Of a stretch of DNA of 4,502 bases, positions 1 through 4,502 are shown piece by piece. Position numbers and translations under genes: made by a program. Origin of the DNA: Dictyostelium discoideum (Eukaryota). The DNA is taken from positions 1-4,502 of the forward strand of contig CH709155.1 of NCBI GenBank assembly GCA_000004695.1. Reading direction: 5' to 3'. How positions within the stretch are numbered: position 1 is the stretch's first letter; each line of letters begins with the position of its first letter. The notes beneath the pieces were generated by a model. The model was not told where the DNA came from. It did not search any database and worked only from the letters and a program-made list of their open reading frames with translations.

Positions 1-160
1 CGAAAACAACTAAGGTAGTGTTTGCTGGATTCAAAGAGTTCAAGGTACAGAAATTGCGGAATCTTGTATAACTGGAGCTATATACTTTGAGAGTTAGGGG
101 TTCCCGAGACTTCATTAACAGCTCAGCTGTTTTTGTATTTGTTGTACGAGCGAAGGACAT
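1..160 (-). CDS. putative tyrosine recombinase ORF, N-terminal 53 codons; continues past the window start
   Basis: On the minus strand, ATG = rc(158-160) and overlaps the TAA of the upstream ORF (TAATG). All 53 codons to the window edge are open: MSFARTTNTKTAELLMKSREPLTLKVYSSSYTRFRNFCTLNSLNPANTTLVVF. The pattern TLK.Y....F..FC....P......V.F resembles the N-terminal core-binding region of tyrosine recombinases. That similarity is from memory and no search was run. Confidence 0.35.
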   Translation of the reverse strand, partial: MSFARTTNTKTAELLMKSREPLTLKVYSSSYTRFRNFCTLNSLNPANTTLVVF

Positions 161-690
161 TACATGAGATTGGAAAGTTGAATAATCCCCAGCTTCCAAC
201 GTTGTTGAATCTGGGTTGGTATCGACTCTACTGATTGTTTGGTCAATACTTCTTGGAATGTTCCCAGTACTTGAGGAAACATGTGACGATGATGACGAGG
301 AACTTGAGCTTGAATCATCGGAAACCAAGTTGCTGATCTCCAGATTGGGAAGATCAGTATTATAGAAACCTTCTTCGAACTGGATGAGTTCATCTTCTCC
401 AGGATAGAAGGCAAAAGAATGGGTGGTGGGAAGGCTAGATATTGCTCCCATTGACTCCAATCGAGGTGGAGTGCATTCATTCTGATTGTTGAGTAGTTGT
501 TCGTTTGATGGTTGAGGTGAGATGCGAACAGATCCATCTGTATTTGACCGAATTGAAGTTGGATGCGATTGAACACTTCCTTCTTCAGTTGCCAGTTGTA
601 ACTCTTGATTACTCTGGACGATGATTTGTGATTCATCTCTGAAAGACGACTGAGGTGGTCGGCTTTTACATTGAAGAATCCTGGAATGTG
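160..690 (-). CDS. DIRS-like ORF3 (RT/RH/MT polyprotein) C-terminal fragment: RNase H end plus DLFAS/methyltransferase-like domain
   Basis: This is the ORF-track 160..711 reading on the minus strand. Residues LHIPGFFNVKADHLSRL match the terminal RNase H motif of gypsy/DIRS elements. Downstream, IQMDLFASHLNHQ...ALHLDWSQWEQYLAFPPPILLPSILEKM...KKVSIILIFPIWRSATWFP matches the DIRS DLFAS domain as I remember it. Codons above 690 are read-through into an unrelated fragment. Confidence 0.75.
   Translation of the reverse strand, partial: HIPGFFNVKADHLSRLSEMNHKSSSRVIKSYNWQLKKEVFNRIQLQFGQIQMDLFASHLNHQTNNYSTIRMNALHLDWSQWEQYLAFPPPILLPSILEKMNSSSSKKVSIILIFPIWRSATWFPMIQAQVPRHHRHMFPQVLGTFQEVLTKQSVESIPTQIQQRWKLGIIQLSNLM
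666..690. repeat. 25-bp direct repeat, copy 1 (ttacattgaagaatcctggaatgtg)
   Basis: It matches 1640-1664 at 24 of 25 positions (g688 versus a1662). It encodes HIPGFFNV on the minus strand. Confidence 0.9.
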
Positions 691-959
691 TAAGAAAGCT
701 AGCCAAGTCAATCAGAAAGAACAACGAAGCAAAACAATCATTGTTAAAATTGAATTATCATTCCAAGCCCAATGTCAAGAAATTAGTTAACTCAAGTGGT
801 AATAACACTACAGGAAACAGTAGTAATAGTAAATCCAGTAGTGGGAGTAATGGCCGATCTAACAACTTCAATGGATCACCAAGTAGTGTTGCATCAGGTA
901 GCAACAATACCAAGTCTGCCAACGGTACCAACAACCGTTTTCAGAAGAACAAGAAGTAA
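690..959 (+). pseudogene. gag-like ORF1 C-terminal fragment (N/S-rich tail ending NNRFQKNKK*)
   Basis: Frame 0 reads VRKLAKSIRKNNEAKQSLLKLNYHSKPNVKK...NNRFQKNKK, stop at 957-959. The near-identical reading occurs at 4022-4291 as the end of the long ORF1 of the second copy. No upstream ORF1 body is present here. Confidence 0.6.
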
Positions 960-961
960 AC

Positions 962-1040
962 TTACCAGTAGGTGGCGTCTGTTCCACCCACAAACAAGTT
1001 TGGAAAGAATTGGGTCTTCCAAACTTTTGTCAAGAGGTCC
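962..1040 (+). pseudogene. ORF3 (RT-containing ORF) extreme 5' start fragment, truncated at 1040
   Basis: The frame beginning at 962 reads LPVGGVCSTHKQVWKELGLPNFCQEV. This matches copy 2 at 4294 onward (LPVGGRLFHHKQVWKELGLPNFCQEVVNGLKVHLL...), which continues into an RT N-terminal region. Confidence 0.45.
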
Positions 1041-1150
1041 CCGCCCTTAGTCGGAATTCCATAAATCAAATTGTTTTAGTTTTTAGTGCCACTATTTATA
1101 CGTTTTTATTTTCTTAAAAATTTCGCAAAACTCAAAAAAATAAGAGTTTT

Positions 1151-1268
1151 CGACCCTTCACAACTTTGTGCATAGTGTCGGTTCGGAATTTTTCAGTTTT
1201 TTCGACCTTGCGCAATGATCGCGTCATTGTGCCGGTTCAAAATTTTTACTTTTCTTTCGAAAATTTTT
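1151..1268. repeat. diverged tandem duplication, about 54 bp x 2.3 (ttcgacc...ggttcRRaattttt)
   Basis: Unit 1 is 1151-1203 and unit 2 is 1204-1258, about 70% identical. A partial third unit, tttcgaaaatttttt, follows. Confidence 0.6.
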
Positions 1269-1275
1269 TATTCTT

Positions 1276-1295
1276 CGAATGTTCTAGAACATTCT
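1276..1295. promoter_or_regulatory. heat-shock element: four contiguous perfect nGAAn/nTTCn units (cGAAt gTTCt aGAAc aTTCt); 1277-1294 is an 18-bp perfect palindrome
   Basis: This is an exact match to the alternating 5-bp HSE consensus over 20 bp. The DIRS-1 terminal repeats of Dictyostelium are reported to carry heat-shock promoters (established knowledge). Confidence 0.55.
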
Positions 1296-1347
1296 AAAAA
1301 ATTATCTTAAATATTTGGGAAATTCAAATAAATAAATGTTATTCATA

Positions 1348-1363
1348 ATATATATATATATAT
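1348..1363. repeat. (AT)8 microsatellite
   Basis: atatatatatatatat. Confidence 0.9.
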
Positions 1364-1485
1364 TTAATATAAAATATAATTTAATAAATTAAATTTTTAA
1401 TTAATTTTTTCTTTTTTTTTTAAATCTTTTTAATTTTTATTTTTAAAGTGATATTATTAATATATCTTATCAAGTTAACTTTATT

Positions 1486-1575
1486 AAGTATTATTATTAA
1501 GTATACTTATTAATTATATAATTATTAAGTATACTTAATAAGTATAATTAATTAGTATACTTATTAAGTACACTT
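1486..1575. repeat. array of palindromic AT-rich units built on ttaagtatacttaa (a 14-bp perfect palindrome) and attaagtatacttattaa variants
   Basis: There are four or five copies in both orientations, for example 1494-1511, 1525-1538, 1553-1570, plus a 9-bp-arm inverted repeat ataagtata...tatacttat. Confidence 0.65.
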
Positions 1576-1592
1576 TATAATAGTACTATTTA

Positions 1593-1811
1593 CATTCCTA
1601 CTTTAAAGATGCTTTTAAGGTTTTTTTTCGCCCCCTGTGTTACATTGAAGAATCCTGGAATATGCTCTCCAATCAAGTTCACTTTCTTCTTGAGGCATTG
1701 TTTCCAAAGTTGTTCGAACAGAACTGAGAGATCTTGTATCTGGCCACCCTGGCGATTGATGTAAGAGAGAGTGGTAGTGTTGTTACGTCCGTTATCGCTT
1801 AATTGGACGAT
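1593..1811 (-). pseudogene. RNase H fragment of DIRS-like ORF3 (SDN...TTTLSYINRQGG...LWKQC...LIGEHIPGFFNV), detached from its continuation at 666-690
   Basis: The minus strand reads *IVQLSDNGRNNTTTLSYINRQGGQIQDLSVLFEQLWKQCLKKKVNLIGEHIPGFFNV, then junk (TQGAKKNLKSIFKVGM*). The SDN..TT..YIN+QGG and HIPG..N motifs have DIRS/gypsy RNase H spacing. The frame is bounded upstream by TAG, the reverse complement of 1812-1814. Confidence 0.7.
1640..1664. repeat. 25-bp direct repeat, copy 2 (ttacattgaagaatcctggaatatg)
   Basis: See copy 1 at 666-690. The two copies bracket a 949-bp block. Confidence 0.9.
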
Positions 1812-2165
1812 CTATTAATCGTCGGTTCAACAAAAGAAGAATGTTTATCCAACCTCAAAAAGACACTGGACTTACTTGTCAAACTAGGTTTCAAGTTAAA
1901 CCTAGAAAACAGTGTTCTCGAACCAACTCAATCAATTACGTTTCTCGGATTACAAATCGATTCTGTATCAATGAAGCTCCTTGTTCCCAAAGAAAAGAAG
2001 AAAAGTAACATCAAAGGAAATAAGAAACTTTTTAAAACTAGATTGTTGCTCCCCAAGAAAGCTTGCTGGTTTAAAAGGAAAGTTAATCGCACTGAAAGAT
2101 GCAGTCATCCCCTTCAGACTTTACACTCACATCACAGCGAAGAAAAAACCACCTTTAAAGCAAAT
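1803..2165 (+). pseudogene. reverse transcriptase fragment (from the LDD of the YxDD box through the thumb) with one frameshift near the A-run at 1990-2006; truncated at both ends
   Basis: Frame 0 reads LDDLLIVGSTKEECLSNLKKTLDLLVKLGFKLNLENSVLEPTQSITFLGLQIDSVSMKLLVPKEKK. Frame 1 then reads VTSKEIRNFLKLDCCSPRKLAGLKGKLIALKDAVIPFRLYTHI. Together this matches the RT pattern YLDD.L....T.EE....L..VL..L...G..LN..KS.L.P.Q.I.FLG..IDS..M...LP.EK...I......LL......V..R.LA.L.GKL.A...AV.P.RLYTR. The Y codon position is TAA (1800-1802). Confidence 0.8.
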
Positions 2166-2320
2166 TTAAATTTAATTTAAAGCGAATTTAAAGTCCTGAA
2201 TTAAAGCCAATTTTAAAGGTAATTTTAAAGGTATTTTTTAAGGTTACTTTAAAATCACCTTAAAAATCACCTTTAAAATTACATTTAAAATTAGCTTTTT
2301 AATCGCTTTAAAAGCTAGGT
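2160..2320. repeat. degenerate minisatellite of roughly 12-bp period with a TTTAAA core; unit orientation flips at about 2246 (aattttaaaggt x3 versus acctttaaaatt-type units)
   Basis: Units are aatttaaagcg, aatttaaagtcctg, aattaaagcc, aattttaaaggt, aattttaaaggt, attttttaaggt | tttaaaatcacc, ttaaaaatcacc, tttaaaattaca, tttaaaattagc, tttttaatcgc, tttaaaagc. The right half is the reverse complement of the left-half unit. Confidence 0.75.
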
Positions 2321-2333
2321 CCTTAGTTCGAAG

Positions 2334-2347
2334 CCGTTAATTAACGG
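2334..2347. repeat. 14-bp perfect palindrome ccgttaattaacgg
   Basis: It is identical to its own reverse complement. Confidence 0.9.
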
Positions 2348-2391
2348 ATAAATTTTTTAAATTTTTTTTTTAATTTTTCAAAAATTACCAA

Positions 2392-2426
2392 AAGGGATTC
2401 GATCCCCCGACCCTTTATCAAAGGGT
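2392..2426 (-). other. tRNA-like half-molecule: anticodon-arm-like hairpin (ACCCT-TTGATAA-AGGGT, anticodon GAT) followed after 1 nt by a T-arm/B-box-like GGGGG-ATCGAAT-CCCTT. Not a complete tRNA gene
   Basis: On the minus strand, 2410-2426 forms a 5-bp stem with a 7-nt loop whose loop is TTGATAA. Positions 2392-2408 read GGGGGATCGAATCCCTT, a 9 of 11 match to the B-box GGTTCGAATCC. No D-arm or acceptor pairing partner could be found upstream. The variable region would be 1 nt. Confidence 0.3.
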
Positions 2427-2481
2427 AGTCTCATCAACCATTTCACCATTTGATTGCTTTGATGCAAATTTAAAATTGATT

Positions 2482-2503
2482 GTAAAGTATTTTGATACTT
2501 TAC
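2482..2503. repeat. perfect 9-bp-stem hairpin gtaaagtat-tttg-atactttac
   Basis: The stem arms are exact reverse complements. Confidence 0.85.
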
Positions 2504-2800
2504 GAAGTTCGGGTTTGGAAATCTAAAATAAAAATTAAAAAAATAATAAAAATAAAATAAAAACATTTTTCGTTTTTCGAAAAATTTAGTTTTTCACTTT
2601 GAATACAAATAACAATATTAGTATTATTTATTAATTTGAATTTCTAAACATCTATTTAATTTATACATATTTAACTATAAATTTAACACTTTTATTTTAA
2701 CTCTTTGATAGTACTGGCCAGGCTTAATTAAAGAGAGATTTTCAGATTAAATCACAATAAATAAAATAAATTAAATAACAACAACAACAACAACTACAAA
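2504..2800 (+). other. AT-rich leader upstream of ORF1: candidate 5' terminal or promoter region of the element copy starting at 2801
   Basis: The region is non-coding at about 15% GC and ends in (AAC)n running into the ORF1 ATG at 2801. No HSE of the quality seen at 1276-1295 is present. Its identity as a terminal repeat cannot be established from this window. Confidence 0.3.
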
Positions 2801-4291
2801 ATGAATAAAACACCAACAATAACAACAACTACAACAACTACACCACAAATTAAGAAGGATCTACATGAAAATGAACAAGGAAAGAAGGAGCTAATGGATA
2901 AGCTCAACGAATGTAAAAGTGCATATGCTATATTAAGCTCAAAGGGCCACGCACTTGAAGGTGAACTAAAATGAGCTAAAGAAAGTAGAGACGAATACAA
3001 ATCAAAATGTGAACAATTAATCGTAGAGAGAGGAGGATTCAAAAGCACAATATCAAAATTGCAAGATGAACTAAGTATATATATATATATATTACCAGCT
3101 AGTCGAGGTATACAAAACACCAGCCACTGAGAAGGCAGGTATAATGGAAGAGGAAGAGACCGAATCAGAAACAACTAGTAATGATAGAAGAGACACTCAT
3201 GCTAAACCAACTCCATCAAATGAATTCATCAGTATTGTTGAACTTTTCATCAGTGAAGGTGCCATCACAGCACTTGAAAGAGTAAACTGGTTATTCTCCG
3301 TATATAATGTTTATGAAATCAGATCAAGAATTCACTATTTGATTACAGGCGTCTTCAACAGACCAAACGAAACAAGAGACACACTCTTGAAAGTAGCCAA
3401 TGCCCTCAACAACTGTCTATCATCAGAAGAGAAGACAGATTAGAAGAGAATTATAGAAATAGTCAAAAATTGCGACAACTCTTCAAAACATAAAGCAGAA
3501 GTTTGGGATGCTTTCGTTAAAATTAGAACATTAGGTGTCAACTTAGATGGTACTAATCTCGAAGCTTAGATCTTGAAGTGGAACAAAGCAAAACTCTATT
3601 GGAGTACTGCTTTGACAACCAATGAAAGATTTACCAATTTACTAGGTGGACTTCACGAGAACGTAACGCTTGAAGTATTAAAACTCAAGGAGGCACTAAG
3701 TGAAGAACAATTCGCTGAATCTAAGCAAGACCAATGGTTCACATGGATCAGAAAATCGGTACAAACTATTAGCGAATCAACGATAGCTTAAAACCTTTGC
3801 TTCTCATGTCAAGTATGTTATCATCTGATAGCTACAATGTCGATATAGAACTTATTAGTTATTTAACTCAGAGTGCAATCGTCTTAGCCGTTAATGCTCA
3901 AGCATCGCTTAGTCGTGTCCGTCGTAACAACATCGCTAAAGAAATCTATGGTTCTGAAGCACTCTTACCAATTAAGATCAAGGATACACCAAAGATGTTT
4001 GATGAAACTGAAACTGAACGTGTAAGAAAGCTAGCCAAGTCAATCAGAAAGAACAACGAAGCTAAACAATCATTGTTAAAATTGAATTATCATTCCAAAT
4101 CAAATGTTAAGAAATCAGTTAACTCAAGTGGTAATAACACTACAGGAAACAGTAGTAATAGTAAATCCAGTAGTGGGAGTAATGGCCGATCTAACAACTT
4201 CAATGGATCACCAAGTAATGTTGCATCAGGTAGAAACAATACCAAGTCTGCAAATGGTACCAACAACCGTTTTCAGAAGAACAAGAAGTAA
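2801..4291 (+). pseudogene. gag-like ORF1 with three premature stops and two frameshifts
   Basis: ATG 2801 begins MNKTPTITTTTTTTPQIKKDLHENEQGKKELMDKLNECKSAYAILSSKGHALEGELK, ending at TGA 2972-2974. The same frame runs on through ...KSTISKLQDELS. A frameshift then occurs inside the (TA)n tract at 3076-3092 (codon phase 2 to phase 0). The frame continues ...IMEEEETESE... with TAG at 3441-3443 and TAG at 3567-3569. A second frameshift falls at about 3773-3790 (phase 0 to phase 2). The frame then runs to NNRFQKNKK with TAA at 4289-4291. The heptad-like, charged and N/S-rich composition is typical of a gag-like protein. Confidence 0.7.
3076..3092. repeat. (TA)8.5 microsatellite inside ORF1
   Basis: tatatatatatatatat. 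The reading frame of ORF1 changes across it. Confidence 0.9.
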
Positions 4292-4370
4292 ACTTACCAG
4301 TAGGTGGACGTCTGTTCCACCACAAACAAGTTTGGAAAGAATTGGGTCTTCCAAACTTTTGTCAAGAGGT
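4020..4370 (+). repeat. second copy of the 351-353 bp segment also present at 688-1040
   Basis: See feature 688-1040. Identity is about 96-97%. Confidence 0.85.
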
Positions 4371-4502
4371 TGTAAATGGATTAAAAGTCCATCTACTTCC
4401 AAATTTCAAGCCGATGCCAAACCCAATTCCGATTTCAATTCCAGAGGGTCCGAAATCAGATTGCATCACACAGGAAGTACAAGACTTGTTATTAGACGAT
4501 GC
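4294..4502 (+). CDS. start of DIRS-like ORF3 (RT polyprotein), partial; continues past the window end
   Basis: The frame is open from 4234 (after TAG at 4231-4233) to the window end: LPVGGRLFHHKQVWKELGLPNFCQEVVNGLKVHLLPNFKPMPNPIPISIPEGPKSDCITQEVQDLLLDD. It overlaps the ORF1 end in the -1 frame. The only in-frame ATG is at about 4421. Confidence 0.5.

Follow-up and report, generated by a model that had tools for sequence, protein, structure and literature searches.

What kind of event places a short direct repeat on either side of unrelated DNA within the RNase H reading frame of a DIRS-1 element? The question is raised by a stretch of 4,502 nt from Dictyostelium discoideum (contig CH709155.1, assembly GCA_000004695.1, positions 1 to 4,502), hereafter the window, in which a DIRS-1 copy that we call copy A is interrupted by roughly 950 nt of other sequence. 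The centromeres of this organism are DIRS-1-rich clusters, about half DIRS-1 in content and highly fragmented, and DIRS-1 is known to prefer existing DIRS-1 copies as insertion targets (PMC2665215, PMC7192593). The clusters interleave DIRS-1, a Ty3/gypsy-like element and other repeats, with fragmentation described as "mainly due to subsequent insertions" (PMC2665215). Nucleotide comparison with seven loci (L001–L007) from four assemblies identified the window as a mosaic from such a DIRS-1-rich cluster, and a protein search with the repaired reading frame returned Dictyostelium proteins only, nearly all of them from D. discoideum. We conclude that the locus is a real but ordinary rearrangement scar in a centromere-forming transposon pile.

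The two repeat copies, at 666–690 and 1640–1664, are identical at 24 of 25 positions with a start-to-start spacing of 974 nt, and share an exact 22-mer, TTACATTGAAGAATCCTGGAAT, at 666–687 and 1640–1661. Chance pairs of this length averaged 0.00 in 200 dinucleotide-preserving shuffles, even with three mismatches permitted. The inserted stretch measures 949 nt when counted between the 25-mers (691–1639) or 952 nt when counted between the 22-mers (688–1639). On the minus strand, 1640–1811 translates as IVQLSDNGRNNTTTLSYINRQGGQIQDLSVLFEQLWKQCLKKKVNLIGEHIPGFFNV and the open reading frame (ORF) at 160–711 reads ...HIPGFFNVKADHLSRLSEMNHK...QMDLFASHLNHQ...; removal of either 974-nt repeat unit yields a single open frame of 225 codons running through ...LIGEHIPGFFNVKADHLSRL.... 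A sequence-only reading of the window had reported the 25-bp pair, both minus-strand translations and the in-frame rejoining after a 974-bp deletion, and each was reproduced by our analysis. That reading had also proposed that the element ORF was originally contiguous, to be checked against other genomic copies, and had named a common internal repeat of the element as the finding that would speak against it. The 22-mer is single in 11 of 11 other DIRS-1 copies (122 kb), where it always stands between GGTCGGCTT and AT(G/A)CT, and the annotated proteins P0001, P0009 and P0015 read through the site without a break (...LIGEHIPGFFNVKADH...). Because it occurs once and uninterrupted in each of the other copies, the 22-mer is not an internal repeat of DIRS-1, and the two halves are collinear parts of a frame that is contiguous in intact copies, as proposed.

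The duplicated site is the extreme C-terminal edge of the DIRS-1 RNase H domain. In an intact 615-aa (615-codon) frame from a neighbouring copy in L006, Pfam matches span residues 58–222 (RVT_1), 337–444 (RNase_H) and 462–567 (Dam), and HIPGFFNV, which corresponds to the repeat site, occupies residues 440–447, so the RNase H terminus recognised from the letters alone is upheld. The "DLFAS" domain of the sequence-only reading is the Dam-like methyltransferase domain of DIRS, the joined frame matching Dam (PF05869) with E = 2e-11. The length of the duplication needs correction. At the mismatch position all other DIRS-1 copies read GGAATAT(G/A) and the left copy reads GGAATGTG, while all ORF1 copies read AAC immediately followed by GTGTAAG at the corresponding place; the GTG of the left copy is therefore most simply ORF1 sequence. 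The duplication derived from RNase H would then be an exact 22-mer followed by three junction bases instead of a diverged 25-mer. A duplication is thus present as had been claimed, with 22 exact nt in place of 25 and with the mismatch assigned to the adjoining ORF1.

The block between the repeats is best read as a nested pile of debris from two other elements, not as a single mobile unit. Its left part is the 3′ end of a DIRS-1 ORF1 belonging to a further copy, copy B. This segment (688–1039) duplicates window positions 4020–4370, is 96% identical to 4016–4370, and is 95–98% identical to the ORF1 ends in L001, L002 and L006 (tblastn with ORF1 residues 245–333). It is followed by a complete right terminal repeat region of 363 nt that aligns end to end with the right repeats at L006 13987–13627 and 6250–5888 (97–98% identity) and has a perfect four-unit heat-shock element, GAATGTTCTAGAACATTC, at 1277–1294 and an outer part that is complementary to the internal complementary region (ICR). 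Three independent right repeats (that of copy B and two others) end at the same base and have different flanks; ICR copies run on past it. The terminal ATT of copy B agrees with the NTT/ATT terminal rule of DIRS1-like elements, whose integration yields no target-site duplication (PMC3266345). Copy B is a second DIRS-1 that has been internally deleted, with right repeat, heat-shock element and natural terminus all present.

The remaining 237 nt, segment X, are unrelated to DIRS-1 and belong to an AT-rich module that we call E. The right edge of X is the recurrent end of E: the same end, with the same kind of array, is found at L001 15085, L003 13311, L005 5941 and L006 2987, where it is flanked by a Skipper fragment (L001), other DNA (L003), DIRS-1 RNase H sequence at a different position (L005) and DIRS-1 ORF1 (L006). 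Elsewhere E starts with two tRNA-like pieces, continues through an A/T stretch into the 13-nt TTATTAAGTATAC array, and finishes in GGATTTAAAGGTGCTTTTAAG...TTTTCGCCCCTGTG. The earlier description of the block as an ORF1 fragment plus AT-rich DNA bearing a heat-shock element was incomplete in composition, having passed over the full right terminal repeat and the unrelated repeat beside it. Occurrences of the E module were recorded at window 1403–1639, L003 13311–13620, L005 5563–5941 and L006 1880–2987. We considered X as a long terminal repeat (LTR) and rejected this, since X-like DNA falls within the LTRs of neither the neighbouring Skipper-like element nor the gypsy-like one (Table 1). No flanking duplications were detected around three other E copies, for which the left boundary of E is not defined.

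The junctions J1 to J5 (Table 1) show how these pieces meet. At J1, copy A and ORF1 share an imperfect microhomology, GAA[T/C][A/G]TG, matching at five of seven positions, with an exact match of 0–2 nt at the crossover. J2 corresponds to an internal deletion of ~2.7 kb in copy B with microhomology of at most 1 nt. J5 has 1–2 nt of microhomology along with small indels. Over its 4.5 kb the window contains four natural-end junctions and four illegitimate joins. The right junction of the block thus appears to be an element end meeting its target, and the left junction an illegitimate join in imperfect microhomology. A target-site duplication would have to abut the two ends of one inserted element. 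Here the right side abuts the end of E and the left side abuts the interior of a DIRS-1 ORF1, not a terminus, so no single element supplies both ends of the block, and neither end is a DIRS-1 terminus. The sequence-only reading was therefore right that the duplication is not a DIRS-1 target-site duplication, both because integration of DIRS1-like elements makes none (PMC3266345) and because the block ends are mismatched.

Table 1. Features of the window and of the loci compared with it. Positions refer to the window unless a locus is named; "reference" denotes coordinates on the 4571-nt DIRS-1 reference.
Feature	Position	Strand	Description
S1, left half of DIRS-1 copy A	2–687	-	RNase H C-terminal tip (HIPGFFNV) through Dam-like methyltransferase
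Left 22-nt duplication copy	666–687		Exact TTACATTGAAGAATCCTGGAAT; 688–690 (GTG) lengthen the match to 24/25
Copy B ORF1 3′ fragment	688–1039	+	Last 90 codons of ORF1 (stop 957–959) and 80 nt downstream
Copy B complete right terminal repeat region	1040–1402	+	Ends at natural DIRS-1 right end ...TTTAATT (J3)
X, 237 nt of AT-rich module E	1403–1639	+	T-rich stretch, 13-nt TTATTAAGTATAC-type array, conserved end ...CTTTAAAGATGCTTTTAAGGTTTTTTTTCGCCCCCTGTG
Right 22-nt duplication copy	1640–1661		Exact 22-mer, runs straight into S4
S4, sole surviving upstream piece of copy A	1640–1783	-	144 nt, RNase H C-terminal region (...SDNG..TLSYINRQGG..LIGEHIPGFFNV)
J1	687/688		Copy A to ORF1 interior (reference ~1131); illegitimate join, position without structural meaning
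J2	1039/1040		TGTCAAGAGGTC to CCCGCCCTTAGT; ORF1 downstream to region just inside right repeat
J3	1402/1403		AAATTTTTAATT to AATTTTTTCTTT; copy B natural right end ...AAATTTTTAATT to AT-rich X
J4	1639/1640		Natural end of E against RNase H target; no microhomology
J5	~1784–1788		S4 (-) to S5 (+); inverted, head-to-head DIRS-to-DIRS illegitimate join
S5, reverse transcriptase fragment	1788–2130	+	Reference 1796–2135, encodes ...LDDLLIVGSTKEEC...
Palindromic module	2133–2481		TTTAAAGG-type units; end CACAGCG... interrupts S5 at ~2130–2133
Ty3/gypsy-like element, truncated	2482–3770; L005 52–5562		LTR (TGT...ACA) ~2482–2689, starts TGTAAAG... at 2481/2482
Gypsy-like element LTRs	L005 52–266 and 5348–5562		
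Skipper-like element LTRs	L003 13645–14007 and 19915–20298		
Breakpoints near the 22-mer	L001 3436, L002 18010, L003 3669, L003 11111		

Centromeric DIRS clusters are difficult assembly targets (PMC2665215), and a chimeric join of repeat reads might be suspected. Such an artefact is effectively excluded because the same structure, with identical junctions, is present in L006, the orthologous locus of an independently assembled strain (4.9-Mb contig JBTAPE010000033.1, assembly GCA_054883475.1). Only eight point changes or indels and a single 44-nt microsatellite deletion separate L006 7153–11609 from window 2–4502, and there is no difference at all across both repeats, the terminal repeat, X, S4, S5 and the junctions. 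All eight window junctions, searched as 24-mers, were found in L006 and were absent from the other cluster DNA covered by our junction and donor searches (121,969 nt from four assemblies, only a few percent of the clusters). L007 (strain tag ACTFIR), taken from a chromosome-sized contig and about as far from its end, is non-orthologous and has none of the eight. Two details of the alignment with L006 may be recorded separately. The 44-nt stretch missing at L006 ~9924 is window 2774–2817, an (AAC)n and A-rich tract upstream of and including the gag ATG; its absence reflects a polymorphism of the microsatellite type or else a difference in assembly. Half of the eight point differences (window 18, 97, 98 and 106, each G in the window and A in L006) cluster in a 90-nt stretch of copy A.

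The two halves of copy A, S1 and S4, lie on the same strand and are collinear; their reference coordinates, 2618–4571 and 2499–2642, overlap by exactly the repeat. Beyond the window, the 3′ half of copy A continues in L006 as an unbroken 1954 nt leftward (L006 5888–7841, reference 4571–2618), passing the recombinase region and the ICR to a natural right repeat end at 5888–5889. A gene with a weak Phage_integrase match occupies L006 6346–7892, and an ICR copy ends at ~6312. Copy A accordingly has the features of a DIRS-1 element, namely the reverse transcriptase–RNase H–Dam frame, the recombinase ORF, the ICR and an inverted terminal repeat downstream, the latter three lying outside the window in L006. 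S1 is 93–97% and S4 93–99% identical to other DIRS-1 copies. Differences from the closest of these, copy C, number 8 of 264 for S1 and 1 of 122 for S4; from the next-closest copy they number 11 of 264 and 5 of 122, and private changes 5 of 264 and 1 of 122. S1 and S4 thus rank their nearest relatives in identical order at similar divergence, with only 122 informative bases available in S4. These values are consistent with S1 and S4 being two sides of one DIRS-1 copy, although they are not proof of it.

We consider it probable that copy A was the site of an ordinary nested insertion followed by breakage and repair, and that the 22-nt duplication is a product of the repair and not of transposase or recombinase action. 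Ordinary nesting gives the simplest history because natural element ends are found at J3 and J4 but not at J1, and the natural ends at 1402/1403 and 1639/1640 suggest that the pile was largely built by nested insertions. The anatomy, the junction classes, the contiguity of other copies and the presence of the locus in a second assembly are observations; how the events were ordered and where the 22 nt came from we infer. Module E would first have come to lie within the RNase H region of copy A, its natural end against TTACATTG..., creating J4. A second DIRS-1, copy B, would then have integrated into the AT-rich DNA of E by way of its recombinase and without duplication, creating J3. Breakage and repair would subsequently have removed the left portions of both E and B and linked copy A to the middle of ORF1 in B, creating J1; the interior deletion of B at J2 may reflect a similar event or the same one. 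Since pure deletion cannot make an overlap, the extra 22 nt must have been newly synthesised. The broken end of copy A may have invaded an intact DIRS-1 copy, been extended there by at least 22 nt past the former insertion site, and then been released and end-joined, and many near-identical DIRS-1 copies lie nearby as possible templates. Alternatively, nicks about 22 nt apart may have been filled in after an aberrant, one-ended insertion of the E end. These two routes cannot be told apart.

Several points weigh against this history of nesting and repair. It needs three or four events where a single copying event would need one. No pre-event allele, whether an uninterrupted copy A or one holding all of E, was found in the loci compared. 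S4 is only 144 nt long, which leaves little power to test whether it and S1 belong to a single copy. Finally, only the right boundary of E is defined, and the term "natural end" rests on five recurrences of that one boundary. The sequence-only reading had favoured microhomology or template-switch repair, or an unusual insertion. A repair-type origin agrees with our preferred history, and the single block pasted in by template switching does not, given the natural ends at J3 and J4. Of the microhomology that it invoked, the left junction shows the five-of-seven match described above and the right junction shows none.

In that single-step alternative, a nascent strand may during replication or break repair have switched from copy A to a pre-existing composite locus elsewhere, used some 950 nt of it as template and come back to A 22 nt behind its point of departure, as in microhomology-mediated break-induced replication (MMBIR) or fork stalling and template switching (FoSTeS), or a fragment may have been captured at a break with a 22-nt stagger. 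A short flanking duplication around an insert of sequence found elsewhere is the classic signature of such copying, one event would be enough, J1 has imperfect microhomology, and fragmented DIRS-1 loci are a known source of short extrachromosomal DNAs (PMC7192593). However, copying would have had to stop on the right at precisely the natural end of E, J4 is without microhomology, and our small sample of other cluster DNA yielded no donor with J2 or J3. The sequence-only reading had suggested seeking the block as an independent unit; outside the window, J2 and J3 were recovered from the orthologue L006 only. We regard copy-in as unlikely. A quite unlikely explanation is that S1 and S4 derive from different DIRS-1 copies, independently truncated and joined by ectopic recombination or successive insertions, so that the 22-nt overlap arose by chance. 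Breakpoints are dense in these clusters (169 fragment ends on the 4571-nt reference within ~104 kb), four others lie 10–18 nt from the repeat, and S4, an orphan piece of 144 nt, is bounded by an illegitimate join on its other side as well. Yet a collinear neighbour in the same orientation overlapping by 25 nt or less is expected well under 1% of the time under uniform breakage, as estimated from breakpoint density, and S1 and S4 have the same nearest relatives at similar divergence.

Two explanations that involve reverse transcription are both highly improbable. In one, non-LTR (TRE-type) machinery would have used target-primed reverse transcription at a nick in copy A to insert a read-through RNA that stopped at the E terminus; the repeat would then be a true target-site duplication. 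The asymmetry between a natural 3′ end (J4) and a truncated, microhomologous 5′ end (J1) fits this, as does the long duplication, non-LTR insertions being marked by 5′ deletions, extra or microhomologous 5′ bases and duplications of variable length (PMC5391098). The block, however, ends in ...TTTTCGCCCCCTGTG on the plus strand and ...GCTAGCTTTCTTAC on the minus strand, with an A-rich tail at neither end, and contains no TRE sequence; TREs target tRNA genes and hardly occur in centromeric clusters (PMC2665215), and duplications around other E copies were not seen. In the other, the DIRS-1 reverse transcriptase would have switched from the RNA of copy A to an antisense or read-through RNA comprising X, the right repeat and the ORF1 fragment, run off the 5′ end of that RNA, and resumed on the RNA of copy A 22 nt back, so that copy A integrated with the block already in place. 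Template switching is required for DIRS-1 replication, and DIRS-1 proteins can work in trans on templates that are truncated (PMC7192593); transcription is driven by both terminal repeats (PMC4482531), and run-off at an RNA 5′ end would account for the sharp J4. Against a chimeric cDNA stand the full right repeat in the block, which reaches its natural DNA end at J3 and gives way there to non-DIRS DNA, the near-complete lack of the right repeat in DIRS-1 sense transcripts (PMC7192593), and the finding of these junctions in no other copy compared.

The position of the duplication within DIRS-1 raises a separate possibility, which we judge very improbable: the boundary between RNase H and methyltransferase may be a preferred cleavage or integration site, and the 22-nt duplication a record of a staggered, site-directed cut by an element-encoded enzyme, whether of E or of DIRS-1 itself. 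If true, this would be a first sequence-level clue to the accumulation of DIRS-1 and its companion elements inside DIRS-1 copies already in place. The four neighbouring breakpoints (Table 1) are independent rearrangements that end at reference 2652–2660 (window ~648–656); two of them, with CTCA or ACCA microhomology, are internal deletions, and at the other two DIRS-1 meets unrelated DNA. Four ends in a 9-nt span compare with ~0.3 expected, but the span was picked post hoc and the excess is not significant once this is allowed for. Within 43 nt at the site there are six fragment ends from five independent rearrangements, against ~1.6 expected. The RNase H site may be locally fragile. A separate peak of fragment ends at reference ~1685 was discarded as an artefact of a ~205-nt deletion in the L001 reference copy (L001 ~18466, reference ~1686).

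The rest of the window is also composite. The palindromic module that interrupts S5 ends in CACAGC...GCTGTG and recurs at L006 2064–2823 and 1–305; the complete 760-nt module in L006 lies within the array of 13-nt units with TA on both sides and resembles a small inverted-repeat DNA element, like a miniature inverted-repeat transposable element (MITE) or a "thug". Rfam gave only sub-threshold, hairpin-type microRNA matches, at the 2205–2295 palindrome. The breakpoint at which the module enters S5, directly after TTTACACTC in the linker between reverse transcriptase and RNase H (window 2128–2130), is shared with L006 15349–15353, where the copy has instead a 699-nt internal deletion (reference 2136–2834). 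The junction of the palindromic-module end CGCTGTG with its flank TAAATATTCTTAATAAAATAAATTTATCTG occurs twice in L006 (1–305 and ~20290–20600), ~20 kb apart in the same orientation, which suggests a segmental duplication within the cluster. In the Ty3/gypsy-like element, gag carries three in-frame stops and a coiled-coil, ATG16-like match (P0018), has only three homologues in the protein database, and is joined to another DIRS-1 ORF1 at 3770/3771 with a shared AG. The LTR of this element begins ~20 nt from tRNA-like (B-box) pieces at ~2395–2460, as it does in L005. The products of the window ORFs at 160–636 (minus strand) and 3144–3443 (plus strand) have no exact counterpart on record. ARAGORN found no tRNA genes in the window or in L001–L003, and the tRNA-like pieces are fragments only.

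Events of this kind are known and the locus adds one more; the clusters have already been described as highly fragmented, and the finding will not surprise a specialist. Its significance beyond annotation is small. It provides a well-resolved example of normal element-end insertions interleaved with illegitimate repair joins in the centromeric DIRS clusters of D. discoideum, and it cautions against reading long flanking repeats in piles of this sort as target-site duplications. The breakpoint excess near the RNase H site, if upheld genome-wide, could bear on the targeting of DIRS-1 by DIRS-1; being modest and post hoc, it is not established by the present data.

Among known systems, the closest likeness is to the nested centromeric clusters described by Glockner and Heidel (2009, PMC2665215), in the same organism and the same kind of region, and four of the eight window junctions are natural ends. 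The locus differs from a simple nested insertion, in which the host halves abut or share the short duplication made by the inserting element itself, by its 22-nt overlap and by one side of the insert that is not an element end. It resembles canonical tyrosine-recombinase integration of DIRS-1 in that DIRS-1 lies within DIRS-1 and the right end of copy B at J3 finishes in ATT. It departs from that mode, which makes no target-site duplication, since the ends of the 952-nt insert are not DIRS-1 termini and copy B would have integrated into the intervening AT-rich DNA and not into copy A. Short duplications that flank inserts are also made during repair, by MMBIR or FoSTeS, by synthesis-dependent strand annealing with end joining, or by fill-in of a staggered break with capture of a fragment. 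The window shares with these a short direct duplication of the target, an insert of sequence found elsewhere and one junction in imperfect microhomology, but its other junction is without microhomology and at a natural element end, and no donor was located in the cluster DNA searched. TRE (non-LTR) insertion likewise makes duplications that vary in length and can be long, and pairs an intact 3′ end with a truncated 5′ end; in the window, however, there is neither an A-rich tail nor TRE sequence in the block, and TREs target tRNA genes and are nearly absent from the clusters.

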